Positions 1 to 54,262 are shown, counted from the whole stretch's first letter. The stretch is 63,019 nt of DNA, filler included, from Raillietiella orientalis (GCA_036172245.1; 14 parts of 14 records of this genome joined end to end with filler, not necessarily neighbours in it); one strand, 5' to 3'. Made by a program: numbers and translations. The notes: generated from the letters alone by a model not told the origin.

Positions 1-1342
1 CGAGTTGTGCGCCGCCATGCGTGCGCGCAACTTGGTCAGCTGACTCGTTCTCCAATCCCCGATCTTCTCCGTTTCGGCGATCTGGAAAGTAACCTTCCAT
101 TGTGCCGCGACGTCACTGCAGAGATGTTCCCTTAGGGTAGGCAGTACCGCAGCAAGGGAGGTTCTTTGTGCCCACGCTCTCCTTCTGGGATCCTCGATGA
201 TTTCTCGGAGCGTGGGGTGGGCGTGCGGCCCGAACAGAGCTATTCGCTCGTGTTTGCGGGCTCCGCTCCTGAGTGATCGCCCACGTGCGGACGGTTTCCT
301 GCAGCCAGGCAGGACCGTTCGAGGGGCGTACGAGGATCCGCTCGGAGTTGATCTTCACGAGCTTGGCCGCCCTTCGAAGCTGAAGTCCGCAGTGGCAGAT
401 GTGGCTTCGGAGTGAAAGGTAGGACGAGAGTCTCGCATTGCCAGTGGCCCGCTCGACGAGGAGACGTGTAGGGAGGCACCAGGCGGTGCACCAATTTTTG
501 GCCATAAAGGCAACACTCCGGAACTGAAGCTGAAGCTCCAGCCGCTCCAGCGTCAGGAGGCCAAGACCGCCGTCGCGATGCGGAGCGCAGAAGTCCGCGA
601 GACGGACTCGGGGCCTCTTTCTGCCCCAAAGGGCGATCCTCAGGAGGTCCTTCGTCCTCTTCTTTGACTCCGCTGAGGGGGGGCAAACAAAAAGCAAGGG
701 GCGAAGGAGGGGTGCCGCAAACGCGTTCCACGCAGCGGCCCGTTACTGCAGGTAGAACCTGCCGTCCTGGAACGAACCGATCGTCGCCTGAGCCTTCTGA
801 AGGCAGCCGGACCACGCTTCCGCAGGGGAGTAGTCCCCCAACGGCACACCGAGGTACTTGAAGTACCTCACCGTGGGGATCCCCAAACGGACCCAGTCCT
901 GCTGCACTGCCCACCCCGCTCTGACTGGCACTACGGACGACTTCGCCCTGTTCACCGTCAGTCCTGTTCCCGGACGCAGCAGGTCCAAGAAGTCCTCGAC
1001 CGCCGAGGCCGGGTTGGACATAGGCAGCAGCAGCAGAAGGTCGTCCACGTATACCGAAACCGCAGGCCTACCGGGACAATCCCATGGCAGGTGCGCCAGA
1101 GTCTCCCTGTACGCTCTCAGCACCAATTCGAAATAGGCGCTGAATAGCGAGGGACTGAGGCTGTCTCCCTGCCGTACGCCGTGTCGCCTTGGTACGCCGT
1201 ACACGGTGGATACACTAAAAAACACATTAATAAGCTCGTCGCGGCAGCTGGAGCGCAGGTGGGCCAGCAAAGAGTCCGGAAATCCCAAGCGTTCAAAAAG
1301 CTCCAAAAGGAGATTCTGGTCCACGCAATCGAATGCTTTGTG
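1..1342 (-). mobile_element. L1/Tx1-like ORF2, RT 3' half (family F), interrupted at HKAFD by element A
   Basis: ORF 743-1324 has GVRQGDSLSP, YVDD and FKYLGV; ORF 113-697 has RDGGLGL. Closely similar to the element at 38225-41006. Confidence 0.9.
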
Positions 1343-1360
1343 AAGTCGAAAGCTTTACGT

Positions 1361-2756
1361 CGGCTAGAGCGGACGTGTTTCCCCGGTGCTCCTCGTGCCG
1401 GGAACCTTCCCATGTGTAGGCTCCGTGTGTGTTGGTGGTGGATTAGGCAGCAATGCCTGACGCGACCACCAGTACGTGTCAGGGGGCGGTGGCAACGTCG
1501 CCTCTAGAGAAGGTGGAGTGCCAGGAGGCGGCGGCAACGTCGCCTTCAGTGGCGAAGGAGGTAGGGGCGTCCGCTCCCACAAAACCGGTCCCCGCTGCAG
1601 CGCGGGCGTGGAGCGCCGTCGTGTCGGCGCCATCGCCTGCAGCCGCGGCGGAATTATCTGCCTATGTGGAAGAGGGGTATAACCCATCACTATTCTACAA
1701 GGTAGGAAATTTGTATTCTGCTGAGAGTGCGCGCGCCTTTTCGAAGGGGATGCGCGCTCTCGATGTTAAAGAAGAGGAGCTCTGCGCTATGACCATTCGT
1801 AGCGGGGGGCAGTACGTAGAGGTGATCTGCAAACATGCAGATCTGGCCCAACGTCTGCTTAAAACCCCCGTGGTCATGGGGACACGCAGGCTCCTTCCCG
1901 TTACGGCGGACCAAAGTATGGTGGTCCATTTTTTAGGAGTTACCGCGCGGATGCGGAAAGAACAGTTACGCGCCGCGTTGGGAAAAGAAGGCACGGTCCA
2001 AGCAGCATGGACTAAGCCTAGTCCTTTCGAGGACTATACCACAGTTCAGTGCGGCCTCACGGCTGCCCGTGTAACCGTTCGGGAGGGCTCTACCCTTCCC
2101 CACAAACTGGTGGTCGGTGGAGAAAGCGTCGACCTCTGGTACGTGGGGAAGCCCAAATACTGTGGCTTCTGCAACACGTCGGCACACCTCAAAAGGAGGT
2201 GCCCCAACGTACGGTGCCTGGTATGCGGGACAATGCGCCACACGAAGGAAGTGTGTCCACAATCCGCTGTGCGCGTGGTTTCCGCGAGGAACCTAAAAAA
2301 ACGAGCGCGGCTGCTTCAGAAAAAACTGGCGGCGAAGGCTGCCGCTCAAGCTGTGCCACCCACTCCCGTGGTCCAGGCCTCAGCCGACACCCCGACAACG
2401 AATGCCGAAAAGATTGACAAAAGCGGTCAGGTGTTGGAATGGCAAGAAGTCACAGCGAAAAAGAAAAAAAAGTCGAAGAAAGAACGACGAATCTAAAAAA
2501 AGCTCGCCTACCAAAATAAAAAACAGCAGGTTAGCGAGAATTTAAAAGAATGCAGCGTCGTGGTGGAACGCGTCCCCGCCGAACGCCGCAAGGTAGAAAT
2601 CGCTGGTACCGACGAGCAACCCACTGTTGAAAATGTCAACAGCGTGGGGAGCGAACCGGCGGAAGCGTCCGTCATCGAGACCGTGATCGATGACGCCGCC
2701 TTCGAGCGTGCGGCGGAGGAGCTGGCTGCATCGTTGCAGCCAGACCCCTTTAAGGC
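1361..2756 (+). mobile_element. L1/Tx1-like element family A: 5'UTR + ORF1, interrupted by element B
   Basis: 5'UTR GGACGTGTTT... and ORF1 are shared with the copy at 34672-36578. Homology to that copy stops at 2756. Confidence 0.9.
1453..2496 (+). CDS. Family A ORF1 (gag-like nucleic-acid-binding protein), premature stop at 2494-2496
   Basis: Two CCHC knuckles, CGFCNTSAHLKRRC and CLVCGTMRHTKEVC, followed by a lysine-rich tail. Homologous coding sequence continues past the stop. Confidence 0.8.
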   Translation: MPDATTSTCQGAVATSPLEKVECQEAAATSPSVAKEVGASAPTKPVPAAARAWSAVVSAPSPAAAAELSAYVEEGYNPSLFYKVGNLYSAESARAFSKGMRALDVKEEELCAMTIRSGGQYVEVICKHADLAQRLLKTPVVMGTRRLLPVTADQSMVVHFLGVTARMRKEQLRAALGKEGTVQAAWTKPSPFEDYTTVQCGLTAARVTVREGSTLPHKLVVGGESVDLWYVGKPKYCGFCNTSAHLKRRCPNVRCLVCGTMRHTKEVCPQSAVRVVSARNLKKRARLLQKKLAAKAAAQAVPPTPVVQASADTPTTNAEKIDKSGQVLEWQEVTAKKKKKSKKERRI

Positions 2757-4681
2757 CAGTTGGAGAACGTGTTTTTACTTCACTCCTCAAAGGGTAGTAG
2801 GAAAGCGCTTTCTTGAGTGTGGTGTTTTGTGTACATCGTCGGTGTCCAATGGCCACGACGCCAGAGGACACCGCGATAAAGGTGGGAGGGGGGGAGGCTA
2901 GTTCGCCCCCACAGCCTACTGGAGCAGCGGCAGCCGCCCCGGAATCATCCCCAGCCACGCCGAGGACATGGAGCGCCATGGTGGCCGCGCCCAGCGCAGA
3001 AGCCATGGCGGAGATGGCCGCATACAAGGCCTCCGGGTACAAGCCATCGCTTGTCTACCAGGTAGGCAACTTGTTCGACGGCCGGACAGCGCGCGCCTTC
3101 AGCAAAGCGTTGAAGGACGCGAATGTCACTGAGAAGGATCTGGACGGCCTCTCCGTCCTCAGCGGCGGGCAGCGGGTCGAGGTGGTCTGCAAAGATGTCA
3201 CCCTGGCTCACCGCCTAATCCATGCGCCGCTGAACGTAGACGGCCGCAAGATCCTGCCAGTATCAATGGACCGCTCCGTGGTGGTCCACATGACTGGCAT
3301 CACCAGCCGCATGACACGGTCAGCGGTTGGTGAGGTATTGCGGAAATACGATGAGGTGCACGCACTGTGGCCGAAACCCTCCATTTTCGACAGCTTCGAT
3401 AGCCTTTTTGGTGGGCAGGCTGCAGCGCGGGTCACCGTACGGGAGAATTGTTGACTTCCCCACAAACTACAGGTGGCGCAAGAAAACGTCGACCTGTGGT
3501 ATGTAGGGAAGCCCCGGTATTGCGGGCATTGTGATACCGTGGGACACCTACGTAAAAGGTGTCCCAATATACAATGCCGTTTGTGCGGGGAGCGGGGCCA
3601 CGTTCGGCGCGTGTGTCCCAAACGCCCCACCCCGGTTCCCCCTGCCGCGAAAAAAGCGCAGAGGAAACGTGCTTCAAAGGTCTCTAGACCTAAAGCAGAA
3701 AAGGGCCAGCACAAGCTGCCAACACCTCAACCTCCGAAGCGTAAGCCGGAGGATAAATCTTCTGAAACGGTGGAAGGCGAAGAGGGATGGCAGCTTGTAG
3801 AGGCCAGAAAGCCGAGGAAACTCCCACCCGCGGTGAGCAAAGAGCGCAAGACGGCCGGTAAGCCGAAGAAATCCGGTCCGTGCTCGAAAACTTTGCGCGA
3901 GTGCACGGTGGCACTGGAACGAATCGTCGTTCCCGAGATTGCCACCCGGAGCGTCGATCCTCCCCTTGCCGTTTCCGCTGCGCCCGAGGCTCGCGACGGC
4001 GAACCCTCTGTTTGCACAGAGGGAGAGCCGCGCGAAATAGCGACGGTCGAAGCCGAGGACGCCGCGTTCGCTCAGGCGGCGGAGGAGCTCGCGGCCACGC
4101 TGACCGAGCGTGAGAACCCCTCGCGCAAGGCCGTGCGAAGGCCGGCTTCCGCGAAAAAAGCCCCCACAGGTGAGTTGGACCTGGGAACCGGAAGCACATC
4201 CTCCTCCTCGGAGGCACCCCCCAGGAAGTCGAAACGCAAGTCCCAGAAACCCAGGAGGCGCCTCCCCTCCACCAGCGAGGAGGAGAAGCAGGATGTTAGC
4301 GGTAGCGTGGGAATCCCGGAGGGGGAACTCCCACGCTCGGCAGCCGTCGAGCCGGTCACCCCCATGGAGGAGGGTGAACAGGGGGGCGAAGTCCTCCCTG
4401 CAGTCGCCGAGCCTGAGCAGCCCGCCCCCATGGAGGAGGGCCAACAGTTAGGCGCGACCCCAACTGAGGGTGACCCGCTAGACGCGCCGTTACTCATGGA
4501 GGAGGGGGACCAGGTGCACGCAGCGCCTGACCCTCCTCCTCCACCTAGCGTCCCGCCTTAACAGCTGGCGGACGCCGCATGGAGCCCCGAGCGGTAAACA
4601 GGGATACAGCGACCGCACCAGGTGGCTGGAATCCCTGAAGCGCGACTGGCTGGCGGCCACGAACGTGCGGAAGGCTCACCT
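2757..4681 (+). mobile_element. L1/Tx1-like element family B: 5'UTR, ORF1 and deleted endonuclease start
   Basis: Begins CAGTTGGAG as at 52791. After 4580 it jumps into endonuclease sequence, an internal deletion relative to the copy at 41107-41590. Confidence 0.9.
2849..4561 (+). pseudogene. Family B ORF1 with in-frame TGA at 3452-3454
   Basis: Starts MATTPE. Knuckles CGHCDTVGHLRKRC and CRLCGERGHVRRVC. ORFs 2813-3454 and 3473-4561 are in the same frame. Confidence 0.85.
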
Positions 4682-5244: not shown

Positions 5245-7697
5245 CGCCTCCCTTTCGTTCAGCGGCGGCGATACCGCCCGTGCGCAAGGCTCTCGCGATC
5301 GCTAAAGGAGTTGCTTAAGCCTGCGTGGAGGCAGCACTTCAAGAGGCAGCCAAGGCAACGCCTCTTACATCCGTGGGAGCAGCGCCATCTCAGGATGGCA
5401 AAGATAACTGCGACGCGAAGGAAGACGGCTGGATGCAGGCGAGAAAGATCATTCGAAAGAAACCATCAAGGTCTTCGCAGCTCTGTGTGAAGGTGAGTGG
5501 GCGAAAGAAACCCGCGAAACCTTCCCAGAAAAAGATTGCGATTCTTTCCTCCTGCGCAATCGTCCTCTCGCGGCTGGAGCGGGAAGCTGCTGCTGCGGCT
5601 AAGAGGACGAAAGTCCCAGGCGCAGTTGCAGAAAGCGCTAGGAAACAGGCAGCGAACGATCTCCCTAATTCCGGGAAACAGCAGCAGTGCCTGGCAAGCG
5701 CTCGACTGTCGGATTCCGATCCAGAGTCCGACAGAAAGAGCACACAGCGCGACAACCGCCCGAAACCGCGCAATCGCCTCCCGAAGATCCGCAAGCGCGT
5801 GGTTGCCGAGGAGAAACTGTTGTTGGAGAGCAAAGAGGAGGAAAAGGACCTCACCTCTGAGCTATCGGCAACAAGCAGTGCGGCTTCGAATGGAGATGTC
5901 CAGTCTCCGAGATCGACCGCTCTGTCTCGTGACGACTCGCCGGACAAGGCGAGAAATCTGTTCTCACCTTCCCAGCCTTAATGCAGGAAATCGTCTCTTT
6001 CCGTCGATACAGCGTAGCCTGTTGGAACGTCAATGGGCTGCGCAGGGACGGAAAGAGGCGCGACGTGTCAGACACCCTGCGACATTTCGATTTGGCGATC
6101 CTTCAGGAGATGCATTACATCTCCGATGAGGAGGTTGCCGAAATCGAACAGCGCGCGGGTGGCACCCTGTACTGGCGAGAAGGTTTTGCACAATCGTGCG
6201 GAGTCGGGTTTCTCGTTAATAGTAGGATGGCGGGAGCAGTGCGCAGCGTTCGATTCGACAAGGAAGGCAGAAGAGGCCAACTTGTACTCAAGTGATCAGA
6301 TTCAATCGACCTCGTCGTAACGAACGTCTACGCGCCGAGCGGCTTTCATCGGCGTGTCGAAAGAATCGAGTTCTTCGACGTGCTGAAGAGCCAATGGCTC
6401 AGAAACTCCGGAGCCAGAGTGGCGCATCTCGTCGCAGGGAACTTCAACGTCCACCTGCTTTCCAACGAGACCCGATCCCTGGCGGAACGGTCGCGGGTGG
6501 AAGAAGCATGCGCGTTGGTGCACGCGTGTAACTTGGAAGCCGGCGAGCCTGGACTGGAAAGGAACGTGGATCACCTCTACCTCGATGAACACCTACTCTC
6601 GCGAGTGGGAAGGAGAGGCAGGGTGCCGTCCACGTTATCGGACCATGATAGGCTGGAGTTCGAGCTACTCCCGCCTGGCAAGGGACCTCCAAACAACGTT
6701 TAAATTATGCCGGCGGATTGGCTGAGTCACCCGGAAGCGGCGAAGCATCTTCGCCAGTTCCTTTGCGGCTCTGCCATCCGGGAACTCGCAGACTGGGACC
6801 ATCTTAAAAGATCGGTTCGCGAGTTTTGCGACCGGTTCCCCCTGCAACTGCTACCACGCGGCTTCGGGGAAGGCGTGGCCAATAGCAGAGCATTTCTGCA
6901 GGCGTGCACCTTCTCGAGACGTGCGGAAGTCCGGCAACTCGCAGAGTACAAGGCGAGGGCCGAGCGCCAGGTCTGGCAGTCTGGAGCGGCTATTCTGCTC
7001 GACGACCAAGGCCGGGAATGCACGGCTCCTGCCGAAGTGCGGCGAGCACTAAAGCGTCACTTCTCCTCGCTCTACGCTAATTCCCCGACGGAAAGAGTCC
7101 TCTCCGAACTACTTTTGCCGCGGGCTGCACATGGCATCGGCGAGGAGGAACGCGATCGTCTCGACGAGCCCTTCACGTTGGAGGAAGTTTCTTCCGCCAT
7201 CGCAGGACTCAAGAGACGGGAGACGCCAGGTGAGGACGGACTGCCCGCGGAGTTCTATCAGAGCTTCGCGGCGGAACTCGCCCCACTGGTTCCTAGAATC
7301 TCGACGCTGATGAGGGTGACGGGCGATGTCCCTTCTTCCTTCCGCTCAGAAAGGGTGCGTCTCCTTCCGAAAGGAGGGGATCTGCGCCAACTCAACAAAT
7401 GGCGTCCGATCACATTAGTGAATAAGGACGTCAAGTTGTTTTCGAAGCTGTGGGTCACGCGCTTAGGGAAAGTCGCGGAGTCCCTGGTAAGCCCGGAGCA
7501 GTCTTACGCTGTACCGGGTAGATCAATGGATGCGAACCTTCTTTTCGCGCGCACCTGGTGGCAGCTCCAAGAGCGCGTTGCAGCGGATAGCCGAACAGCG
7601 GCAAGACCTTCTGCCGACTGCGTGCGCCAGTGCGAACGGACGGAAGAAAGGCCGGGAGCCTTGACACCAGCAGTAGATTTGCACAAAGCATTCGATT
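5245..7697 (+). mobile_element. L1/Tx1-like element family G: ORF1 C-terminus, APE endonuclease and RT N-half, broken at DLHKAFD
   Basis: Motifs ACWNVNGL, ILQE, AGNFNV, SDH, PGEDGLP, WRPITLVNKDVK and VDLHKAFD. In-frame stops at about 6293 and 6701. Confidence 0.92.
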
Positions 7698-7699
7698 TT

Positions 7700-9353
7700 C
7701 ACCCGGATTTCGCCGGGGCGTTTATTATAAAACAAACATCTACAAAGACGTGCAGTGGCTGGACCATTGCTCCAGCCACGCACGAAGAAACACAGAGCCT
7801 GCCGGGTCACCGGTTTGCAGACCGGTACGGTCCACCACGGCAGCAGGGGGAAGGGGGAAAAACAAAAAACAAAACAAAAAAGAAAAGAAAAGTTGGGAGG
7901 GTAAGGGAAGGGATCACAGTTGCTGGTGGGGCCGTTGCATCCTTTGCAGGATGCCGGCAAGCTCCTTCTGTATTTCTGAATCCAGGTGGGGCCATCGGGA
8001 CGCCCTCCTCTGGAACTGGAAGGCTGGCTGGATGGCACCCTGGTCGCGTTGTCCTCTCTAGGCCTTGCCCCAAGCGGTGACGATCCCGCGTAGGCAGCAC
8101 AAAGCTGCTAACGAGGCCGCTGGCCGAAGGGCGTCGGCAACGAAGAAGACTTTCAGTGCGTCCCTGGGGTTGCGGCAGGGGATTCCGATGGCCGCGGCAA
8201 AGCGAAACCAAAGGGGCCGAAGGGCAACACAATTGACTAGCAGGTGGGGGAGGGACTCCCGTTCCCCACACCTGACGCAATTGGGGTCCACCGCTCCCCA
8301 GGTCCAGTGGTGTCGGCGGGCGTTGCAGTGAAGTCCCCAGTGCTGCAACAGGAGAGCCGACTCCTGCCATTTTAAGGGGAGGGCGGAAGTGTTCATGAGC
8401 ACCGGGGGCCACTTCAGATGTTCAATGGGAACATCGAGCAGCGCGCCCCAACGCAGAAGTCCATTGGGAGGCGTACTCGGGGTCGCAGCGTCTGTTAACT
8501 GGCCCGTCTTCCACTCTCCTATCTTCTTCTCCTTTCCGGAGATTGTTACTGTAACCACCCACTTCGCCGCAACATCGCTGTCCAGATCTTCCATCAGGGA
8601 GGGCAGCGCAGCAGCGAGGGCGGTTCTTCCTGCCCACGCTCTCTTCTTTGGATCCTCCAGGATCTCGCGAAGCGTGCAACTTCTGTAACCCCCAAACAGG
8701 AACCTTCGTTCCTGTTGGGAGCGTTGCATGCCGAACTGTCCCCACGTTCGAACGGTTTCCTGTAACCAGGCACTACCGTTAAACGGGCGACAGGTGAGCA
8801 ATCCTGGGTTTTTCCGATACAGCGCAGCCACCCTCCTTAGCTGGAGTCCGCATCGGTTGACGCGGCGACGGAGTGCAAGAAACGACGTCAGTCCCGTCTT
8901 GCCGGTGGCTTGCTGGAGAAGGATACGTGCAGGGACGCACCAACAGGTGCACCACAACTCTGGAACGAGTGCCGACAATCGGAACTGGAGCTGAAGCTCC
9001 AGCCACTCCAGCATCAGGAGGCCCAGACCACCATCCCGACGAGGAGCGCACAAGTCCTTTAAGCGGACTCGGGCCCTCCCGTTGCCCCAAAGGGCGATAC
9101 GGAGGAGGTCCTTTGTCCGCTTTTTAATTCTCTCTGTAAGGGGGCAAACGAAAAGCAGGGGGCGGAGGAGAGGAGCCGCGAACGTGTTCCAAACCGCGGC
9201 CCGTTAAGGCAGGAAAAACCTGCCGCCTCGGAACGGGCCGATCGCCGTCTCTACTTTTTATAGGCAGCCGGACCACGCTTCCGCAGGGGAGTAGTCCCCC
9301 AACGGCACATCAAGGTACTTGAAGTACCTCACCGTGAGCATCCCCAAAGATCG
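7700..9353 (-). mobile_element. L1/Tx1-like 3' half with complete 3' end (family A', probably the 3' part of A)
   Basis: RRDGGLGL, zinc finger CVRCGERESLPHLLVNC, T-rich 3'UTR, AATAAAC + terminal hairpin ending at 7700. Confidence 0.92.
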
Positions 9354-9453: not shown

Positions 9454-9685
9454 CGGCGCGCTCTGTTGTTCTACGCGCGTACAAGGAGGAGTAATAGTCC
9501 CGCAGGATGCGGTTTATTCTCGCCGGTGCTGAGCATTCTTGGCCTTGGGCGTCCAGCAAGCTGGCCGACCCGGATTGCCAGGTCTGTCGCTCAGCCCCAG
9601 CTTTATACTCCGCCAGGAGTCGAACGTCGGGAGTCCTAGAGTAAAGACGGGCGTGGTGGTATGCCCGGTCGTTCCTCAGCCCAGC
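9454..9685 (-). mobile_element. ORF2 fragment (endonuclease-RT linker)
   Basis: Minus strand reads GLRNDRAY...EYKAGAERQTWQSGSASLLD...YYSSLYAR, homologous to the other ORF2s. Confidence 0.8.
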
Positions 9686-10353
9686 GTCCGCCGTACACCG
9701 CGCAGTCAGGAGCTACTTCTCCTCGTTGTACGCGGAGGAGCCCACGGAACGCAGTCTCCCCAAGCTGCTTCTTCCGACGGGCAACCCTGCTATCGACGAG
9801 GAGGAACGCGCCAGATTGGATTGGCCCTTCACGGCGGAAGAAGTATCTTCCGCCATATGCGGGCATGAAGAGGCGTAAGGCGCCAGGTGAGGATAGTCTG
9901 CCTGCTGAGTTCTTCCAGTGCTTCGCGGCGGAACTCATCACCCTTGTGCTGAGGCTTTGTGCGCTGATGCGAGAAACGGGCAATATCCCGACCTCGTTTC
10001 GCTCAGCAAGGGTGCGTCTCTTGCCGAAAGGCGGAGACATGCGCCATTTAAGCAACTGGCGTCCCATCACCTTGGTGAATGCGGACGTCAAGTTGTTCTC
10101 CAGGCTGTGGATCGCGCGCCTAGGCAAAATCGCTCGATCCGTGTAAGTCCGGAGCAGTCTTACGCTTTTCCCGGGCGGTCCATGGAGGCGAACCTGTTCT
10201 TCGCGTGCAAGTGGCTAGAGCTGCAACGTTGCGTCACGCACAACAGCTAGGCAACCGCATCTGCGGCTGCCGAGGCTAGGCGTCGCTGCATTCGGCCTGA
10301 GGAAGCGCCGGGTGCCTTGGAAGTCGGGGTCGACCTCCGCAAGCCGTTCGATT
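9686..10353 (+). mobile_element. 5'-truncated RT N-half (G-like family), broken at DLRKPFD
   Basis: KAPGEDSLP, LLPKGGD, WRPITLVNAD and GVDLRKPFD, with frameshifts. Confidence 0.88.
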
Positions 10354-15165: not shown

Positions 15166-15231
15166 TCAAGATACTTTAATGAGTATAGCGATTTGCGGTT
15201 TCGTAGGTAGTTATTGGCTTTGAATTATAGA

Positions 15232-38165: not shown

Positions 38166-38224
38166 GTGCGAAGGAACACCTTCGCGAACACCTTAGAGGC
38201 ATCACGCTCCGGAATTTCCATTGA

Positions 38225-43242: not shown

Positions 43243-43830
43243 TGAGTGCGAACGACACGAAAGCTGCGTTAACGAAACGTAAGTCGTCCACGGCCACAGC
43301 ACGCTGCAAGCACCTGCTCTCTCCAAGCCGCCACGATTACACGAATGCATCACAGTACTGCTATACACGCAACCGGGGGCAAGGAGGCACGAGAGAACAG
43401 GCGCCTGAAAATGTCCCTGGTATCGCCTCTGCCAATGTCCCCTCTGGATCGTCGTTGGACGATTCCAGAAGGGACGGAGGGCGATGCAGTCCACAAGAAG
43501 GTGAAGAAATGTCTCTTGGTCCCCGCACCGGTCGCAGAGGTCATCCACACTTTCGCGTGTCCTGTGAGTTGGGCGTGCTTTGCACTGGAGTCCACAATGT
43601 AGGACGAGCAACGCAGCCTGCTGCCACTTCATGGGAAAGGGGCCACTGTTCCAGCACATTGGGGGCTACTTCACCTCCTCTGGAGGTAATCCGAGTAGGT
43701 CGCCCCAGCGTAAAAGAGCATTAGGCGGGACACTCGGGGTCGCATCGTCCGAGATGTCCCCGCCTTGATTGGGTGAGTCCTGCCGTCGATGACTCAAAAC
43801 ACTTCCAAGTTTCCCTGTTCTTGGCTATTC
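43243..43830 (-). mobile_element. Decayed ORF2 C-terminus fused to B ORF1 by a deletion
   Basis: MKWQQAALLVLHCGL and CDRCGDQETFLHLLVDC. Confidence 0.75.
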
Positions 43831-43928
43831 CTGGAGTTCACTCGATGCCTCGTCCGTATTTTCTGATATTGTCTCGTGTTATTTCCGAAGACAAGTGTAT
43901 TCTTTCGTGAGACTTAGAATTCTAAAAA

Positions 43929-44570
43929 ATGAAGTCAAAAGTAGGACACCAAAACCTTCAGACTTTCTTTAGTAGAGGCAGAGACAATATTCAAGAGAAA
44001 AGTAGTGATGGTGCCAAAAGTATGCCAAGTACTATTGCCTCAAGTTCAAAAGAAACAAAGAAAAGAAAATACGTTGAAGCTTTGGAATGTGCAATACAAA
44101 CCAAAAAGAGAAAAGGAAACTTTGTTAGGCATTTCAACAAGGACTGTTTAACGCAAGGGTTTCATTGTAGCCCGTGGAAGTGAACTATGGCCACAGTCTT
44201 GGTGTGTAATATGTTCCCAAATCCTGACGCTATGAAGACTTCGAACTCGCTTGTCAATGGCATTCCAAGCATGATGATTTTACTGATAAGCCACTGGAGT
44301 TTTTTCAATGATTGTGTGACCAGAAGAAAAGTCAGAAAACTCAAACGAAAATGATGATGACTAGATGACTGATGACTAGTGACAAGTTGTTGCTTGGAGC
44401 GTCTTATTCAGCTGCTCTTCGATTAGCTAAAACGAGGAAACCGTTTACTATTGGTGAGGAGTTAGAAAAGCCTTGCATCTTAGATGTCGTGCAAGAAATA
44501 TTGGGTCCTCGAGCCACTAAAAAACTGAAGGCTATATCGCTTTCGTACTGATGTGGCCACCGATATTGAA
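43929..44570 (+). mobile_element. hAT (Buster/Charlie, ZBED5/SCAND3-like) transposase N-terminal fragment, decayed
   Basis: Across frames: BED-like AMK...HSKH..DKPLEFF and ASYSAALRLAKTRKPFTIGEELEKPCILDVVQEILG...KKLKAISLS. Confidence 0.8.
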
Positions 44571-45532
44571 AAGTGATGCTGCTGGAGTGAAAGGCGATGT
44601 AATCAGAACAACCTTCAGAAGTCCTTAACATCCTCAAGATCATTGCTCCTTTTTATCTACAAATCATAATTAACTTCGTGAGCTTGTGAGTCTGCATTTC
44701 GCTTTCAAATGGATTTACGTGCTCGTCTACTTTTGTTTTCTAGCGGCGTTCCGGGATCCATAAATATAAATTATGACACGCACACACACCTTTATTGAAT
44801 GTAGGTCCCTCAGCTCTTCACTGTCGTATTTAAATCCTGATGTTATAAAGTCAAATAAATATGACTGATATACTTTGAATGAGAAAAATCACTGTAACTC
44901 CTTTAGAGTGCACTTCCTGAATGAAGGGCATCCGGATGCGGGTTCAGTGTGTAACATATCTGGTGACGAGATGTAAGAGCACAAACGTTCTTCAGGAACA
45001 CAGGTTTGGGATTAATTCTCTGGAAAAAATGCAGCTTGAATCGAGAACTTTCGTAAAAAAGATTCCTGGAAATGTTATTTTCAAAAGTGTCCTCATCTTT
45101 GTGTTGTTGGTACAGCAAGCCCTGTAAAGGCAAAGGCTTACCACATACAATAGCAATTGGTTTTTAGGAATTTATGTTCTTCGGTAATTGATCTGTTGGA
45201 TCATTGCCTCATCCACACAGAAGGGATGAATCTCATGAATTGAATTTCAATGCCCTGGATTTGAGCATTTCTTTATTGATTTGATCGCATCTCATATTAA
45301 TGAGTTTTTCGTTTCGCATTAGAGCACTCATAAAGGAATGCCATTTTTTCTGAATTTTAGTGTTTTGTAGAATTGAGTGCTACTGTATGTGGAGAAGAAA
45401 GTGGAAGTTGTTGCTTGGAATAAATGAATAAGNNNNNNNNNNNNNNNNNNNNNNNNNNNNNNNNNNNNNNNNNNNNTTAATTAATTAANNNNNNNNNNNN
45501 NNNNNNNNNNNNNNNNNNNNNNNNNNNNNNNN

Positions 45533-48469
45533 GGTTTCGGCGGCGGGGCTCGCAACAAACGCGCGTATTTGCACGCACGTCGTCACGAGAGGAACCCCAA
45601 TGTCCTTCGCCTGGTCGAATATCGCGCCGGAGCCGAGCGACAAGCCTGGCAATCCGGGTCAGCCAGCATGCTGGATGACATGGGCCGGGAACGTTCGTCC
45701 CCGTCTGCGGTACGGAATCTCGTGCGGTGTTTTTATTCCTCCCTTTACGTCAAAACACCACCGGAACAAGACGCCTCGCGGCGATTGCTCATGAGTTGTT
45801 CAGTGGCGATAGGGGAGGAGGAGAGAGAAAGCCTCGATGAGCCTTTCGCGACCGGTGAAATTCTCGCCGGTATCAAAAGGCTCAAGAGACGTAAGGTGCC
45901 AGGGGAGGACGGCTTGCCTGCGAAGTTCTTTCAGAGTCTCGCGGAAGAGCTCGCCCCCCTGGTGCTCGAGTTGTCAAGGCAAATCCGGGACGAAGGCGAT
46001 GTTCCCGCCTCGTTTCGGTCAGCCAGGGTGAGGCTCCTCCCGAAGGAAGGAGACCTCAGAAAACTTTGCAGCTGGCGTGCGATCACGATTGTGAACACGG
46101 ACGCCAAGTTGATTGCCGGGCTGTGGGCTTCGCGATTGGGGCAGGTGTCCAATTCCATAATTAGCCCGGAGCAGACTTACGCTGTTCCCCGGCGAAGTAT
46201 GGAGGACAACCACTTATTCGCGAGCACATGGATGCACGCGCAGCGGAGTAATAAAGGGAAAGGGAAAATTTGCAACCCTACTTTGGGGCCGCCAGTAGGA
46301 CAGGGAAGGGACCCTCATGCGGGAAAGGTGGTATTAGGGATCGTAGTCGACCTCCATAAGGTATTCGACTGTGTTGACCAGGAACTCTTCTTGAAGCTCC
46401 TGGGTCGCATGGGCTTCCCACCCTCCTCGATTACCTACGTGCGCTCTTGCTGGCGGAACGCGATAATCTCAATTACTTTCATTGGACAAAAGGTGTATGG
46501 CGTGCCGGTGCGGCCGGGCATAAGGCAGGGCGACAGCCTCAGCCCCCTGCTTTTTAGCACCTACTCTGAGTTGGTGCTGAGAGCGTACAGGGTGACTTTG
46601 GCCCCTTTGCCGAGCTCGTGCCTCGGCACGCCAGCCGTAGCGGCGTATGCCGACGATCTTATGCTCCTCTTACCTATGTCCACCCCGGCTAAGGCGGTCG
46701 GAGATTAATTCGACCTGCTGAGCCGTGGGGCCGGATTACAGGTTAACAGGGCGAAGTCGTCAGTGTTGCCAGTTGGAGCGACGTGGGCAGGGCAGCAGGA
46801 CTGGGTCCGTCTGAGTATCCCCACGGTGAGGTGCATCGAGTACCTCGGTGTGCCGTTGGGGGACTTCTCCCCTGCGGAAGAGTGGTCTAGCTGCCTCCAG
46901 AAAGTCGAGACGGCGATCGGCTGGTTCCTGGAATGCAAGTTTTACTTGCCGTAACTGGCCGCGGTTTGAACGCCTTCGCTGCCCTCATCCTCCAACCCTT
47001 GCTTTTTGTTTGCTTCGCCCCCGTGGAATCTAAAAAGCGGACGAAAGACCTCCTCCGCATAGCTCTTTGGGGCAAGGGGAGTCCCCGAGTCCCTTTAAAG
47101 GACTTGTGGGCTCCGCGTTGGGACGGCGGTCTCAGCATCCTGACGCTGGAGCGCGTGGAAATCCAGCTGCGATGGCGGACCCTCGCCATCGCAGCGAAGA
47201 TGTGGAACACCGCTTGGTGCATTCCGGCCCGCCTCCTTGCCAGGCGTGTGTCCCGGTGCGATGGACTCGCGTCTTTTCTTCTCAGCCGTGGCCGGAAGAT
47301 GCGAAGATGCGTCCTACTGCTCGGGCGCATGGCAACCCTGGCAAAGGAGAACGAGTAGATGGTTTGTAGCCCTGCGAACTCCTCCGCTTGGCTGGAAGAG
47401 ACTGCTGGCACCTGGGCTAAGCAGAACCAAAGGTGCGAAGACCGGATGAACTGCCTGCGAGTCGGCTTATACGCCCGCCGCATTCTCCGTGAAATTCTTG
47501 AATTTCCACCGAGTTGCACGTGGGCAGAAGGCACACTCCTTGTTACGGCGATGCCCTTCCTACAAAGGGCGCTTCACAAAAGCTAGAAGCCACGGTGGCA
47601 AGTCTGCTGCCGTATCGCAGGCAGAGAGAAGATGATGAGCGGCTGGACCATGGGAGAGTTTACAGATGCAACGACCCCTAGTCTCCAGCCGCGTGGATTA
47701 AGAAGATGGGGCGAGCTGCTCGGCATTCGATTGAATGACCTGAAGTGGCCCCCGGTTCTACTTGGATACAGGATTCTCCCCTTGAAGTGGCAAGAATCGG
47801 CGCTTCTGTGGCTGCATTGGGGTCTACTTTGCAACGCGCGCCGCTTCCACTGGACGCGGGGAAGAGTAAATCCTGCGTGTGCCAGGTGTGGGGAGCGGGA
47901 GTCGCTCCCATACCTCTTAGTTGAATGCCCTGCCGTCCGGATTCTTTGGGATCGTCTGAAAACGGCCCTCCGGATACCGGATGGTGGCAATGTTGAATGT
48001 ATCCTCAGTCTTGTCTTCGTGCGGGACGCTCTCAGTCCAGCCGCAGCCCTGGCAGCACTTTGATGCATTCGTGGTATCGTGGCGACCTGGAGTGAAGCCG
48101 AAGATTAAGACTGCATCGTGAGGGACGTCATCGAGTATGCTCCGCGCTTTCTGCAGAGAGCTACCTAATGGCTCCATCTAGGAAAGCTGAAAATGGAACT
48201 AGAAGCCATCCTGCAAAGGATGGGCGCTCCCAGCAGTTTTCTGTGATCCCTTCCCGGCCCTCCAAACTTTTTTTTTTGTGGTTCGTTTTTCTATTTTATT
48301 TTAATTTGGTTTTTTCCCCCATCCCCCTCCACTGCCGAGGAGAGCCACACCGGGCTGCGTCCCGGTGTCTCGGCAGTTCCGGTATTGCGTGGGCGTCAGA
48401 GGCGCCTTGTACCACGTTCTGTATTGACCGTTGAAATGTTTTTAATAAACGTCCCGGGGTATCCGGGTG
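45533..48469 (+). mobile_element. Family D ORF2 (RT + zinc finger) with complete 3' end, decayed
   Basis: DLHKVFD, QGDSLSP, YADD, CARCGERESLPYLLVEC and terminal hairpin at 48444-48469. Confidence 0.93.
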
Positions 48470-49852
48470 GCATCGCCGAAAGCTGGAGGGAGACGGTTCA
48501 GGGGAAACTGGTCGCAGAACTCGCGGACTGAGCTCCTCAAGTCGTCCCAGTCCGCGAGCGACAGCAGATGGAAGCCTTGCAGGAACGAGCGAAGATGTTG
48601 CGCTGCTCCTGCGAGGCGCAACCAGTCCCCTGGCAAACGCCACGCTGTGGAGGGTGGACCTCTACCGCGCTGGTGTATTTCCACCACTAGCCGGGGATGG
48701 TCGGAAAGTTCGGATAACACTGCCCCTCGATTTCCCAGCCGCGAACACAGGTGGTTGTCGAGGAACATGTGGTCGATCCTCGTCTCCGTCCCGGCGTCAC
48801 CGGCAACAAGTTGCACGCGTGCATGGCAGCGCACATCTCGTTTAACAGCTGTGCGCAAATGTCGGGCGCACCTGCCAGCAGGCGGACGTTAAAGTCCCCG
48901 GCAATGAGGTGCGCCTTTCGCATGTCTGCTTCGGCCAGCCAATCTCGCCGCAGGCCTTCGAAGAACGCAGTGCGTTCTCCGCGCCCGTGGCTCGTGCCGG
49001 GCGCGTACACGTTGGTCACGACGAGGTCGATCACGTCCGACCACTTGGCAACTAGATGTCCGATTTGACCTTCCCCGTCGAAGTGCACGTCGCGCAGCGC
49101 ATTAACGACGGCTGGCTTCAGCATGAAAGCCATACCGCGGGTGTTGTCTCTCCTGTTCTCGTATAGGAGCCGCCCGCCTGCGATCCGTTCGATTTCTTGG
49201 GCCTCCCCTGCGTGGAGCACGTGCGTCTCCTGCAGAAGCCGCAGGTCGAAGTCCTGCAGGCTGGCGGCCACTTCTCTCCTCTTGCCGTCGTCGCGCAACC
49301 CGTTGACGTTCCAACAGATTACGCGCAGTCGCCGGCAGGAGGAAAGTACACGCGTTGGTGTGTTTATGGTGTTTGCTCACCGTCCTCCGCCTGCTGTTCG
49401 GCAGGCGGGAGTTGTGTATCCATTGCGACAGGCTGTTGCTCGCAAGGAGGCCGTCGGTCCGTGGTTGAGGTGGTGGTTGGAGGATCCTGGTTGGTCAGGG
49501 ACGTCTCCGGCGACGAGTGACGAGACCTCGCGGACATCGCCTCCCGTCGTCGTGGTCCGACCGCATTTCCTCCTCCGCCGGTGGAGGTGCGGAGCGCCGC
49601 GGGTTGCCTAACTTGCGGCCCGCTTTGCGCTTCGGGAGAGCGACAGCCGGAGCGTTGACGGCTTCGGCTTCGGACTCGGAAGTCTCCGGACCTTTCGCCT
49701 CAGCCGGACGCCTCAAGGCGTTCTTCTGGGCCTTGGGAGGTTGCTGGAGCATGGCTGCCAACTCTTCCGCCGCCTTGTTGAAGTCCCGGTCGTCGCTGCT
49801 AACGCTGGGCTCGCGACTTTGTCGCGGCGTCGGCGTTCGCGCGGCGGCGAGT
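48470..49852 (-). mobile_element. Family H: ORF1 C-terminus and APE endonuclease, interrupted at AFGD by element D
   Basis: CWNVNGL, LLQETH, TNVYAP, AGDFNV, RIDH, SDH, then FPLNRLPPAFGD. Confidence 0.9.
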
Positions 49853-49952: not shown

Positions 49953-52776
49953 AAGCCTGGCAATCCGGGTCGGCCAGCTTACTGGACGACCAGGGCCGGG
50001 AATGTTCGTCCCCGGCGTCGGTACGGCATCTCGTGCGGAGTTATTATTCCTCCATTTACGCCAGGGCGCCCCCGGATCAAGATGCCTCTCGGCTCTTGCT
50101 TCCGGATGGTGCCGCGGCAATAGGGGAGGAGGAGTCGTTAAGCCTCGATGAGCCTTTTACCACCGGCGAAATTCTCGCCGGTATCAAAAGGCTCAAGAGG
50201 CGGAAAGCTCCAGGGGAAGACGGCTTGCCCGCGGAGTTCTATCAGAGCTTCGCGGAAGAGCTGGCACCCCTGCTGCATCAGCTGAAAAGGCTGATCCGAG
50301 ACGAAGGCAATGTTACCGCCTCGTTTCGGACAGCCAGAGTGAGGCTCCTTCCGAAAGGAGGAGACCTTAGGAATTTGAACAACTGGCGTTCGATCACGAT
50401 TGTGAATACGGACGCCAAGTTGCTTGCCGGGCTATGGGCTTCGCGTCTGGGGCAGGTGGCAGAATCCACAATTAGCCCGGAGCACACATATGCTGTTCCC
50501 GGGCGAAGTATGGATACCAACGTCTTCTTCGCGAACACATGGATGCACGCGCAGAGGTGTCAAAAGGAAGGGAAAGGGAAAATCGGCAACCCCAATTTGG
50601 GGCCGCCAGCAGGGCAGGGAATGGACTCCCGGGCGGGGAAGGGGGCCTTAGCGCTCGCAGTCGATCTCCATAAGGCGTTCGACTGTGTTGACCAGGGGCT
50701 TTTGTTGGAGCTCCTGGGTCGCATGGGCTTCCCACCCTCCTTGATTACCTACCTGCGCTCTTGCTGGCGGAATGCGATTATCTCCATCTCTTTCAGTAGT
50801 CAGAAGGTGTATGGCGTGCCGGTGCGGCGGGGCATCAGGCAGGGAGATAGCCTGAGTGCCCTGCTCTTCAGCACCCACTTTGAGTTGGTGCTGAGAGCGT
50901 ACAGGGTGATTTTGGCCTCCTTGCCGAGCTCGTGTCCCGGCACGCCCGCCGTAGCAGCCTATGCCTACGACCTTCTGCTCCTGTTACCTATGTCCACCCC
51001 GGCGAAGGCGGTCGGCGACTTCTTCGATCTGCTCAGCCGTGGGACCGGACTGCAGCTCAACAGGGCGAAGTCGTCGGTGGTGCCAGTAGGTGCGGCGTGG
51101 GCAGGGCAGCAGGACTGGGTCCGTCTGGGGATCCCCACGGCGAGGTCTCTCAAGCACCTTGGTGTGCCGTTGGGTGACTACTCCCCTTCGGAAGCGTGGT
51201 CCAGCTGTCTTCAACAAGTTGAGACGGCGATCGGCCCGTTCCTAGAAGGAAAGATTCACTTGCCGGAACGGGCCGCGGTTTGGAACGCTTTTGCGGCCCC
51301 CATCCTCCGCTTCTTGCTTTTTGTTTGCCCTGCCCACAGAGAATGCAAAAAGAGGACAAAGGACCACCTCCGCATAGCCCTTTGGGGCAAGGGGAGGCCC
51401 CGAGTTTTTCTGAAGGACTTGTACGGTCCGCGTCGGGACGGCGGCCTTGGCCTCCTGACGCTGGAGCGCGTGGAAATCCAGCTGCGGTGGCGAACCCTCG
51501 CCATCGCAGCGAAGATGTGGAGCACCCCTTGGTGCGTTCCGGCCCGCCTCCTCGCCAGGCGTGTGGCCCGATGCGAAGGACTCGCGTCGTTTCTTCTGTG
51601 CCCTGGCCGGAAGATCCGAAGATGCGGCCTTATGCTCGGACGCATAGCAACCTTGGCGAAGACGAACGGTTGGATGGTTTGTGGCCCCGCCAACTCCTCC
51701 GCCTGGTTGGAGGAGTCTGCTGGCACATGGGCTAAGCTGAACAGCAGGAGCGAAAACCACATGAACTGCCTGCGAATCGGCCCATACGCCAACCGCACCC
51801 TGCGGGAAATACTGGAATTTCCTCGGAGTCGCAGGTGGGCGTTGACGACCCCCCTTGCTACGGCGATGCCCTACCTCCTGAGGGCGCTTCAGGATTGCCA
51901 GAAGCCGAGGTGGCAAGTCACCTGCCAGATCGCAGGCAGGGAGAAGATGTTAAGCGGCTGGACCACAGGAGAACTGGCGGACGCCACGACCCCGAGCGTC
52001 CAGCCGCGTGGACTAATGAGATGGGGCGAGCTGCTCGCCATCCCTACGGATGTGCTGAAGTGGCCCCCGGTATTAAAGGAATCCAGGATCCTGCCCCTTA
52101 AGTGGCAAGAGTCGGCGTTGCTTTTGTTGCACTGGGGTCTACCCTGCAACGCGCGCCGCTTCCACTGGACGAGGGGAGCTGTGGATCCTGCGTGTGCCAG
52201 GTGCGGGGAGCGGGAGTCGCTTCCCTACCTTATTGTGGATTGTGCTGCCATCCGACCCCTCTGGGAACGGTTCGGGGCGACCCTAGGGCTCCCTACGGGC
52301 AGCACCCCCAGAGACGTTCTTCGGCCCCTCTTCGTGAAGGACGCACTGCAGCCAGCCGCAGCCATCGCAGCCTTGTGCTGTGTCCGTGGCATCGTGGCGG
52401 CATGGAGCGACGCCAATAACGAAGGAGTGGGTCCACACGCGAGGGATGTCGTCCCATACGCCCAACGCTTCATGCGGAGAGCTGCCGGATGGCCCCAACT
52501 GGGGAATATACGGACGGACCTCGAGGGCTTCTTTCAACGGATGGGCCCTCCTCACAGCGTTTAGTGATCCCTTCCCTGCCCTCCAACTTCTTTTTGTCTG
52601 TTTATTTTTTTTATATTTCTTTTTGTTTTATCCCCATCCCCCTTCGCTGCTGAGGAACCCTACGCTGGGGTGCGTCCCGGCGTCCCGGCAGGTCCAGTGC
52701 ATATGGTCGTGAGCGGGACCTTGTACCGCGGATGTAGAGTTTTTTTAAAAATAAACGCCCCGGGCGTACCCGGGTG
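49953..52776 (+). mobile_element. Family C ORF2 and complete 3' end
   Basis: Long RT ORF, T-rich 3'UTR, ends AATAAACGCCCCGGGCGTACCCGGGTG. Confidence 0.95.
50033..52564 (+). CDS. ORF2 RT + C-terminal zinc finger (5'-partial), catalytic YADD changed to YAYD
   Basis: 843 codons open with all L1-type RT motifs. AYAYDLL replaces the AYADDLL seen in other copies. Confidence 0.85.
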   Translation: MRSYYSSIYARAPPDQDASRLLLPDGAAAIGEEESLSLDEPFTTGEILAGIKRLKRRKAPGEDGLPAEFYQSFAEELAPLLHQLKRLIRDEGNVTASFRTARVRLLPKGGDLRNLNNWRSITIVNTDAKLLAGLWASRLGQVAESTISPEHTYAVPGRSMDTNVFFANTWMHAQRCQKEGKGKIGNPNLGPPAGQGMDSRAGKGALALAVDLHKAFDCVDQGLLLELLGRMGFPPSLITYLRSCWRNAIISISFSSQKVYGVPVRRGIRQGDSLSALLFSTHFELVLRAYRVILASLPSSCPGTPAVAAYAYDLLLLLPMSTPAKAVGDFFDLLSRGTGLQLNRAKSSVVPVGAAWAGQQDWVRLGIPTARSLKHLGVPLGDYSPSEAWSSCLQQVETAIGPFLEGKIHLPERAAVWNAFAAPILRFLLFVCPAHRECKKRTKDHLRIALWGKGRPRVFLKDLYGPRRDGGLGLLTLERVEIQLRWRTLAIAAKMWSTPWCVPARLLARRVARCEGLASFLLCPGRKIRRCGLMLGRIATLAKTNGWMVCGPANSSAWLEESAGTWAKLNSRSENHMNCLRIGPYANRTLREILEFPRSRRWALTTPLATAMPYLLRALQDCQKPRWQVTCQIAGREKMLSGWTTGELADATTPSVQPRGLMRWGELLAIPTDVLKWPPVLKESRILPLKWQESALLLLHWGLPCNARRFHWTRGAVDPACARCGERESLPYLIVDCAAIRPLWERFGATLGLPTGSTPRDVLRPLFVKDALQPAAAIAALCCVRGIVAAWSDANNEGVGPHARDVVPYAQRFMRRAAGWPQLGNIRTDLEGFFQRMGPPHSV

Positions 52777-52790
52777 TAAACCTCCAAGAC

Positions 52791-54262
52791 CAGTTGGAGG
52801 ACGTGTTTTTCCTTCACTCTTCAAAGAGTAGTAGGAAAGCGCTTTCTTGTGTGTGGTGTTTTGCGTACATCGTCGGTGTCCAATGGCCACGACGCCAGAG
52901 GACACCGCGATGGAGGTGGGTGTGGGGGAGGCTAGTTCGCCCCCAAAGCCTACAGGAGCAGGGGCAGCCGCCCCGGAATCATCCCCGGCCACGCTGAGGA
53001 CATGTAGCGCCATGGTGGCCGCGCCCAGCGCAGAAGCCATGGCGGAGCTGGCCGCATACAAGGCCTCCGGGTACAAGCCATCGCTTGTCTACCAGATAGC
53101 CAACTTGTTCGACGACCGGACAGCGCGCGCCTTCAGCAAAGCGTTGAAGGACGCAAATGTTACTGAGAAGGATCTGGACGGCATCTCCGTCCTCAGCGGC
53201 GGGGAGCGGGTTGAGGTGGTCTGCAAAGATGTCACCTTGGCTCACCGCCTAATCCATGCGCCGCTGAACGTAGACGGCCGCAAGATCCTGCCAGTATCAA
53301 TGGACCGCTCCGTGGTGGTCCACATGACTGGCATCACCAGCCGCATGACGTGGTCAGCGGTTGGTGAGCAACTACGAAAGTACGGTGAGGTGCACGCACT
53401 GTGGCCGAAAACCTCCATTTTCGACGGCTTCGATAGCCTTTTTGGTGGGCAAGCTGCAGCGCGGGTCACTGTAAGGGAGAATTGTGGGCTTCCCCACAAA
53501 CTACAGGTGGCGCAAGAAAACGTCGACCTGTGGTATGTAGGGAAGCCCCGGTATTGCGGGCATTGATACCATGGGATACCTACGTAAAAGATGTCCCAAT
53601 ATACAATGCCATTTGTGCAGGGAGCGGGGCCACGTTCGGCGCGTGTGCCCCAAACGCCACACCCCGGTTCCCCCTGCCGCGAAAAAAGCGCAGGGGAAAC
53701 GCGCTTCAAAGGTCTCTAGACCTAAAGTAGAAAAGGACCAGCACAAGCTGCCAACACATCAACCTTCGGCGCGTAAGCCCGAGGATAAACCTTCTGAAAC
53801 GGTGAAAGGCGAAGAGGGATGGCAGCTTGTAGAGGCCAGAAAGCCAAGGAAACTCCCACCCGCGGAGAGCAAAGAGCGCAAGACGGCCGGTAAGCCGAAA
53901 AAACCCGGTCCGCGCTCGAAAACTCTGCGCGAGTGCACGGTGGCACTGGAACGAATCGTCGTTCCCGAGGCTGCCACCCGGGGCGACGAGCCTCCCCTTG
54001 CCGTTTCCGCTGCGCCCGAGGCTCGCGACGGCGAACTCTCTGTTTACACAGAGGGTGAGCCGCGCGACATAGCGGCGGTCGAAGCCGCGGACGCCGCGTT
54101 CGCGCAGGCGGCGGAGGAGCTCGCGGTCACGCTGGCCGAGCGTGAGAACCCCTCGCGCAAGGCCGTGCGAAGGCCGGCTCCGGCGAGGAAGGCCCCCAAA
54201 GGTGAGCTAGACCTGGGGGTCGGAAGCACATCCTCCTCCTCGGAGGCACCCCCCAGGAACAA
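52791..54262 (+). mobile_element. Family B: 5'UTR and ORF1 (ATG 52883, frameshift at about 53564)
   Basis: Same 5' start as 2757; MATTPE ORF1 with CCHC knuckles. Confidence 0.92.

Follow-up and report, generated by a model that had tools for sequence, protein, structure and literature searches.

Long interspersed nuclear elements (LINEs) with a preferred target are known from genes for ribosomal RNA (rRNA) and for small nuclear RNA (snRNA), telomeres, microsatellites and unrelated transposons. Such target-specific LINEs are valued as models for how an apurinic-type endonuclease and a reverse transcriptase (RT) find a site, and as leads for site-directed gene insertion. R1 and R2 target the rRNA genes of their hosts, and R2 carries a restriction-like endonuclease. 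In the available text of PMC4494074, LINEs of the Tx1 clade are described at fixed positions of transposons: Tx1L in Tx1D, Tx1-Mar in Mariner-N4_AMi, and Tx1-8_Crp and Tx1-4_AMi in long terminal repeat (LTR) elements. The same text describes SINEU-3, inferred to be mobilised by Tx1-Mar, whose tandem insertions enclose a target-site duplication, and SINEU-2B_Crp, with 5' extensions derived from the target of its master copy; the co-transcription of R2 with its target is also cited there (PMC4494074). Zepp and ZeppL, L1-type LINEs of green algae, insert into their own copies and form nested clusters that are GC-richer than the rest of the genome (PMC8226300, PMC3446292). Zepp nests are reported to be arrays mostly of 3' ends, and the available text of both papers states neither a fixed coding-motif target nor an antisense rule. 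Here, we analysed a 63,019-nucleotide (nt) stretch of the Raillietiella orientalis assembly GCA_036172245.1 (hereafter the window), which carries nested LINEs, and found that the sequence encoding motif A of the RT is an insertion target for related LINEs.

The window is not a single locus. It joins 14 separate contigs (c1 to c14), in descending length from 4,681 to 4,269 bp, by 13 spacers, each N44-TTAATTAATTAA-N44. The region under study (1-54262) comprises c1 to c12, and its coordinates cross 12 independent contigs. LINE fragments were present in nine of these (c1-c3, c7-c12), which have wholly or partly ~60% GC; c4-c6 (14119-27648) were without LINEs. Because the window consists of joined contigs, the results describe nine unlinked pieces of ~4.4 kb, a repeat-biased sample.

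Amino acid identity separated at least seven LINE lineages. The c2 and c3 copies of D were 89-90% identical to each other, and the c9 and c1 copies of D' were 84% identical to each other and 59-78% to D. W1, W2 and W3 shared 61-79% identity, H (c2) had 50-56% identity to other lineages, and E (c8) only 32-43% to every other lineage. Further host copies were H' (c3) and F (c11). Families A and B were seen as 5' halves only, with a 5' untranslated region (UTR), the first open reading frame (ORF1) and the start of the endonuclease, which is encoded by ORF2. The copies that carry RT motif A, and the inserts beside them, are the following (coordinates, strand, feature):

1-1342, - strand: host in c1, a D' ORF2 RT fragment (amino acids ~238-674 in W coordinates; RVT_1, tblastn), whose bases 1327-1342 are the motif A target in reverse complement
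1343-1358, + strand: diverged second copy of the motif A target (target-pattern match)
1359-2755, + strand: family B, 5' UTR and ORF1, cut at the ORF1 site by A (identity to c8, ORF1 homology)
5990-7697, + strand: host H in c2, ORF2 from the endonuclease to RT motif A, ending after the target at 7685-7697
7700-9353, - strand: 3' part of family D (C-terminal half of the RT, C-terminal domain, 3' UTR, hairpin), antisense at motif A (3' terminus, identity to c3)
9691-10353, + strand: H', 5'-truncated ORF2 (W amino acids ~14-243), with its 5' end at the linker site and its right end cut by D
10356-14018, - strand: family D, spanning the endonuclease (from amino acid ~53) through the 3' hairpin and sitting antisense in motif A of H'; no insert occupies its own motif A (12443-12456)
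32587-34669, - strand: lineage E from RT motif A to the 3' hairpin, hosting B at motif A (34655-34669)
34670-36578, + strand: family B, 5' UTR, ORF1 whose insertion site (36056-36067) is empty, and endonuclease start
38227-41006, - strand: D', ORF2 amino acids 8-868 and 3' hairpin; motif A (40307-40320) is unoccupied
45533-48469, + strand: W1, covering ORF2 from the linker onward as far as the 3' hairpin, with an empty motif A (46358-46371)
49953-52776, + strand: W2, open ORF2 of 869 amino acids (RT to C-terminus) followed by the 3' UTR and the hairpin, with an empty motif A (50672-50685)

The target comprises 16 nt encoding RT motif A (H-K-A-F-D), with a 13-nt core for K-A-F-D. It was occupied by an antisense insertion in four of the eight RT copies covering motif A, and the junction position was identical to the nucleotide in the 3' junctions of c2 and c3 and the 5' junctions of c1 and c8. 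In c2 and c3, the + strand host ORF2 ends right after the 13-nt core (7697 and 10353), followed by TT and then by the reverse complement of the D 3' terminus. At the c1 and c8 junctions, this core (1327-1342 and 34655-34669) is where the - strand host ORF2 picks up again, next to the B 5' end. Read along the host, the 16 nt that precede the D 3' junction of c2 are identical to the 16 nt that follow the B 5' junction of c1, an overlap that would be the expected target-site duplication if B and D are two ends of one element kind. Among the window copies, D ends (2/2) and B ends (2/2) all lay in the motif A target; the target-specificity criterion given in the available text of PMC4494074 is more than 20% of the flanks of all genomic copies in the target. 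Motif A is a sequence-specific insertion target, and what is probably one lineage, seen as 3' halves (D) and 5' halves (B), enters it, always in antisense orientation. Uninterrupted counterparts were found for two of the interrupted copies: the D' copy of c9 is an unoccupied-site paralogue of the c1 host (89% identical), and the B copy of c8 is the counterpart of c1 B with an unoccupied ORF1 site.

The four motif A hosts (H, H', D' and E) belong to different lineages, with 36-56% amino acid identity. The D inserts were 92.9% identical, compared with 75.5% for their hosts, and the B inserts (c1 versus c8 34670-36068) were 81.9% identical, compared with 70.1%. Since the inserts are far more alike than the hosts, the insertions were independent. 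This bears directly on the possibility that elements nested at random in LINE-rich heterochromatin and that the nests were then duplicated segmentally, an explanation to which the setting lends itself: the contigs are unplaced, repeat-rich and beside satellite contigs, and composite alignments cross the junctions between c2 and c3 and between c1 and c8. However, host and insert identity differed by 12-17 percentage points across each shared junction, the hosts came from four lineages, and the clustering is very unlikely by chance. When nine junctions were placed at random on a 3.6-kb ORF2, four fell within 20 nt and in one orientation in 3 of 200,000 simulations (~1.5 × 10−5). With host and insert divergence unequal, segmental duplication was rejected for the motif A junctions, and we consider this explanation as a whole very improbable.

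Even less probable is that the assembly made false joins at short words in conserved motifs. The contigs are short and unplaced, and several have ends near junction sites (c11 starts at the linker site described below). Yet each junction type occurred in two contigs differing by 7-30%, host and insert share at most 2 nt at the join, and the inverted junction of c3 has diverged arms and no perfect foldback. Assembly chimeras were therefore rejected as an origin of these recurring junctions.

Searching the 63 kb with a degenerate form of the 13-nt core gave nine matches; shuffled sequences had a mean of 1.19, and none of 100 reached nine. Eight matches were the RT motif A sites, and one was an extra copy at c1 1344-1356. 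This extra copy (full extent 1343-1358) stands between the host and the B 5' end, matches the target at 12 of 16 nt (p ~4 × 10−5 per register), and is closer to the other motif A targets than to the adjacent host. It is probably a relic target that travelled at the source transcript's 5' end. Most simply, the B copy that served as source was itself inserted at a motif A, and its transcription started a few bases upstream of the element, bringing a copy of the old target to the new B 5' end. Intact motif A targets were also present in the RT genes of the inserters themselves, at 12443-12456 in c3 (D) and 40307-40320 in c9 (D'). Because the element's own RT gene has an intact target, the system is self-targeting as well as cross-targeting.

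A second site lies in ORF1 and involves these features:

2756-4681, + strand: family A, 5' UTR, ORF1 of ~586 amino acids (two CCHC, one in-frame stop) and endonuclease start (zf-CCHC; 93.8% to c12 52786-54259)
52777-52789, + strand: 13-nt ORF1 target remnant, flanked by W2 (3' end) and A (5' end)
52790-54262, + strand: family A, 5' UTR and frameshifted ORF1

In c1, family A begins (2756) inside ORF1 of B, breaking it at the position of a 12-nt E-P-S-K stretch in the uninterrupted B of c8 (36056-36067). In c12, the 13 nt before the A 5' end (52790) match the ORF1 site at 10 of 13 positions (p ~1.3 × 10−4), and the W2 3' terminus stands directly before them. The two elements thus stand in tandem, both in sense orientation, with a remnant of the target (10/13 nt) between them. 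This suggests that A and W2 share the ORF1 target, and the two may be halves of one family. Support for the ORF1 site as a recurrent target is moderate. The ORF1 copies each had one defect, namely an in-frame stop in A of c1 (3452-3454), a stop in B of c1 (2494-2496) and a frameshift in A of c12 (53541-53566); a Logan contig of another sample has a 2-nt insertion at 53563. The ORF2 part of W2 (49955-52561, 869 amino acids) was fully open. When c12 was compared with the Logan contigs of one DNA run, 211 pieces aligned, and those listed measured 194-495 nt.

The third site is the linker between endonuclease and RT, with three further features:

9454-9690, - strand: host fragment in c3 from the linker site (D3n amino acids 253-327), the complementary side of the c11 junction (tblastn, MAFFT)
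27749-28133, + strand: W1 3' end (to 28125) and 8 nt (28126-28133) as in the c11 flank (92% to the c11 copy)
48470-49852, - strand: host F in c11, ORF1 C-terminus, endonuclease and linker to D3n amino acid 258, cut antisense by the W1 3' end (Exo_endo_phos, 41.1 bits)

The W1 3' end in c11 adjoins the antisense host F, which extends from ORF1 through the endonuclease to amino acid 258 (D reference frame). In c3, an antisense host fragment starts at amino acid 253, directly beside the 5'-truncated, + strand H'. The host halves of c3 and c11 are complementary (amino acids 253-258) and overlap by ~11-18 nt in a conserved G-F-G-x-G-V (MAFFT, tblastn). The chance probability of this junction pair alone is ~0.06. 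W1 and H', with 69% nt identity, appear to share the site, and support for the linker as a recurrent antisense target is likewise moderate. At its start (45533), c11 lies no more than ~10 nt from the linker target, and ORF2 also contains the ends of several other contigs, such as the start of c12 (49953); recurrent insertion junctions may be points where the assembly tends to break. The c7 flank of W1 was considered as another antisense linker site, but this was not supported, the region being a decayed, internally deleted ORF2 in sense orientation. It spans 28134-30300 on the + strand and has an internal deletion of ~1.2 kb, with the endonuclease at 28678-29027 and the RT at ~29237-29400. Further along c7 (30362-31967) are two separate - strand fragments of the same RT region (amino acids 466-520 and 478-580), one of which breaks at ~amino acid 434.

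Three more features belong to sites or arrangements seen once:

32251-32582, + strand: host fragment in c8, endonuclease N-terminus, cut by the E 3' end (alignment with four uninterrupted endonuclease copies)
36679-38165, + strand: W3, ORF2 amino acids 305-799, broken at 38165
41107-43761, - strand: A-like copy in c10 (41107-43253) behind a W-like C-terminal piece (43317-43761)

In c8, the E 3' end lies antisense in the endonuclease N-terminus, 4 nt past the end of the homology to four uninterrupted copies. In c9, the D' 3' end is followed by 61 nt (38166-38226) and then by antisense W3, broken at amino acid 799 in the ORF2 C-terminus. The best local score of these 61 nt within the window was 24, in the range of 30 shuffles (20-28); they contain a small inverted repeat. 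The E and D' sites were each represented by one junction. In c10, an A-like copy with a different, shorter 5' region (43254-43316) stands in sense orientation behind a W-like C-terminus; its A part was 89% identical to c12, the W part only 66%. The W-like piece is 5'-truncated at ~amino acid 672 and adjoins low-GC, non-LINE DNA (43762-45432); nowhere else in the window do these LINEs border DNA that looks like ordinary genome sequence. This low-GC DNA matched no Pfam family at E up to 0.01; our impression, which is unverified, is that it resembles a hAT-type transposase.

The original prediction had seen in such sites a guild of families partitioning their targets through diversified endonuclease specificity. 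In its full form, five or more lineages would each have evolved an endonuclease fitted to one particular conserved coding motif in relatives (the N-terminus of the endonuclease, the linker, motif A, the C-terminus of ORF2, or ORF1). The lineages do differ by site: D and B occur at motif A and W1 at the linker, E was found in an endonuclease N-terminus, D' close to an ORF2 C-terminus, and A and W2 in ORF1. D and D', at 60-78% amino acid identity, stand at different sites, and related Tx1 families are reported at different positions of one Mariner target in the available text of PMC4494074. However, the E and D' sites have one junction each, that of D' with its 61-nt gap; W1 and H' appear to share a site; and the 5' and 3' halves cannot be joined into families. 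Moreover, an endonuclease domain is in hand for only one inserting family with a known target (D), plus the N-terminal 147 residues of A. We hold partitioning as a tentative reading, somewhat on the improbable side. A stronger form appears doubtful to us: a closed guild living almost wholly inside one another, with each lineage's endonuclease tuned to another conserved coding motif of relatives (endonuclease N-terminus, GFGxGV linker, RT motif A, ORF1), and with inverted LINE nests beside satellites that could seed small-RNA or heterochromatin silencing. If it were true, the most conserved parts of a family would be its own landing pads, and antisense entry would inactivate the host copy.

A pattern search revealed seven well-preserved 3' termini in the window, on the + strand at 28125, 48469 and 52776 and on the - strand at 38227, 32587, 10356 and 7700. 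All seven share a terminus of 26 nt with an AATAAA signal, made up of AATAAACG, a GC stem of 5-6 bp, a loop of 4-6 nt and TG at the very end (in c9, T); upstream of it, the lineages differ in sequence. A hairpin was predicted in all seven, and none of the seven ended in a poly(A) or microsatellite tail. Scanning metagenomes with the terminus pattern gave 18 loci, none with a tblastn match to the window ORFs (0/18). These loci were rejected as relatives, because they look like chance matches in unrelated contigs.

Six of the seven 3' ends had been placed in recognisable relatives by the original prediction. Five do adjoin one directly: at antisense RT motif A in c2 (7697) and c3 (10353), at the antisense linker in c11 (48470), at the antisense endonuclease N-terminus in c8 (32582), and, in c12 (52777), at the 13-nt ORF1-site remnant followed by the family A 5' end. 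The sixth (c9, 38227) is separated from its neighbour by the 61 nt. The seventh (c7, 28125) lies upstream of a decayed endonuclease, as claimed, at ~240 nt and in sense orientation. The placement of all four A and B 5' ends in related elements was confirmed, with B at c1 1359 and c8 34670 in antisense RT motif A, A at c1 2756 in B ORF1, and A at c12 52790 after a W-type 3' end. The predicted recurrence of the site within a family held for D (2/2), B (2/2) and full-length A (2/2), but the third A-like copy, in c10, is elsewhere. As for the general claim that relatives are the insertion targets, it is well supported for RT motif A and moderately for the ORF1 and linker sites, and the others are single junctions. 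Over all junctions with an identifiable neighbour, eight were antisense and four sense.

The near-identical 26-nt 3' terminus in all lineages would be expected if the lineages used a few shared hot spots with no partition, through a common endonuclease preference or through annealing of the RNA 3' end to the nicked target. That two lineages appear to share the linker site, and A and W2 the ORF1 site, points the same way. Nevertheless, D (2/2) and B (2/2) were found only at motif A and W-type 3' ends never (0/3), and complementarity between 3' terminus and flank did not exceed 2 nt. We regard shared hot spots as unlikely.

In the explanation that we consider likely, related L1/Tx1 LINE lineages use target-primed reverse transcription to enter copies of their relatives at short, fixed sequences. 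The tandem inserts around a target remnant and the old target copy at one 5' end fit target-primed integration. The endonuclease of the element would nick the sense strand of the host just behind motif A. The RT would recognise the 3' hairpin, and copying would start at the last RNA bases and not in a poly(A) tail. Source copies would be transcribed from a point a few bases upstream, inside the target. The element would thereby gain a landing site that is plentiful, conserved and harmless.

Several points weigh against this explanation. No contig has both flanks of one insertion, and for this reason the target-site duplication was inferred from different copies. The 5' halves (A, B) are never physically linked to the 3' halves (W, D), and the sample consists of nine unplaced 4.4-kb contigs, enriched for nests. 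As the stem is invariant, covariation lends no support to the hairpin. Two copies depart from the site of their family: in c10, the A-like copy lies in a W-like C-terminus, and W1 in c7 shares with c11 only the first 8 flank nt (28126-28133) and then differs. These 8 nt may be another tandem around a target remnant, or part of W1 itself. Finally, the D' 3' end in c9 adjoins 61 nt matching nothing.

By their predicted domains, the elements are endonuclease and RT LINEs of the L1/Tx1 superfamily. A Pfam scan of 97 frames of at least 150 amino acids matched RVT_1 in six frames (five above the cut-off, best 54.4 bits), Exo_endo_phos in two (one above the cut-off, 41.1 bits), zf-CCHC in one (21.0 bits, above the cut-off) and zf-RVT in one (20.3 bits, below the cut-off of 27.5). 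The domain order, determined by tblastn with database LINE proteins and window frames, was endonuclease, linker, RT and C-terminal region; upstream of ORF2 is an ORF1 of ~586 amino acids with two CCHC knuckles. Tx1 hallmarks are an N-terminal apurinic-type endonuclease, an RT and a C-terminal zinc-binding region in ORF2, and CCHC knuckles in ORF1. The window elements match this endonuclease-RT-C-terminal order and the CCHC ORF1, whereas the zinc-binding zf-RVT match stays below the cut-off.

The best match among solved structures was human L1 ORF2p (2 × 10−34; R2, 5 × 10−12). The nearest ESM Atlas cluster has the automatic name 'Transposon TX1 uncharacterized 149 kDa protein' (score 0.96), and an ESM Atlas query with the endonuclease part returned no clade label. 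Names of Tx1 or L1 elements for a clade tree were sought by two word-based searches (17 and 29 matches) and the look-up of 10 clusters, with none found. A HMMER search of a library of 1.84 billion representative proteins gave 22,862 matches at E up to 0.001. Among the 150 best of these, only P0001 (64%) and P0020 (69% over 132 amino acids) were close, and the next best had 36%; judged by these 150 best matches, the group is rare in public protein data. P0018 is a repetitive gene model and was of no help for clade placement. Placement in the Tx1 clade is therefore a candidate assignment with two leads, the ESM Atlas automatic name and the human L1 ORF2p structure match.

Among the remaining contigs, c5, c6 and c13 (18672-27648 and 54363-58650) are filled by a 277-bp satellite with two subfamilies. 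The c5 and c13 satellites are ~91% alike and in opposite orientation, and that of c6 is only ~72% alike to both. A separate 180-bp satellite fills c14 (58751-63019). The satellites have ~40% GC, compared with 60% for the LINEs. GT-rich, low-GC DNA makes up c4 (14119-18571, chiefly 14600-17100), with 5-12% C per 500 nt and a GC skew of +0.44 to +0.49. That c4 is a C-to-T hypermutated LINE copy was rejected, as a C-to-T-tolerant blastn gave only two matches, of 37-46 nt. It carries one exact GGACGTGTTT (14750), a motif otherwise seen at LINE 5' ends; this motif was rejected as a conserved 5'-end marker (8 matches, 4.8 expected).

If target-primed integration into relatives is correct, the motif A lineage would be a hyperparasite, each insertion of which knocks out a competitor or a parent copy. 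A host element would hardly be able to lose the motif A target by mutation and survive. As its own copies carry the target, the spread of the element would be limited. The system would offer a testable case of transposon conflict and niche use, and a defined 16-nt target for biochemistry.

A search of the full-text literature, with Repbase reports, most subscription journals and the supplements of PMC4494074 outside its coverage, returned no description of a coding motif of relatives as a LINE target. Like the Tx1-clade LINEs in the available text of PMC4494074, the window elements combine an endonuclease and an RT, stand at a defined position of another transposon, and show tandems around the target and a target-derived 5' extension. 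Unlike those LINEs, as described there, they insert into coding motifs of related LINEs, the catalytic RT motif A among them, rather than into DNA transposons, LTR elements, snRNA genes or microsatellites, and three of the sites are used antisense. They resemble Zepp, as far as the available text of PMC8226300 and PMC3446292 describes it, in that every identified host is a related LINE and that D', itself of D type, is a host in c1. They differ from it in the nucleotide-exact position, the involvement of several lineages, the AATAAA signal without poly(A), and the animal-looking flanking DNA. With R1 and R2 they share the use of a conserved multicopy sequence as a safe target, and transcription from the target would put target bases on the 5' end, as in those elements. 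In contrast to R2, these elements have an apurinic-type endonuclease, and the multicopy conserved sequence they use is the RT gene of their own relatives. What appears new is that the fixed-position target is a conserved coding motif of related LINEs, which combines the known Tx1-type targeting with Zepp-type self-nesting.

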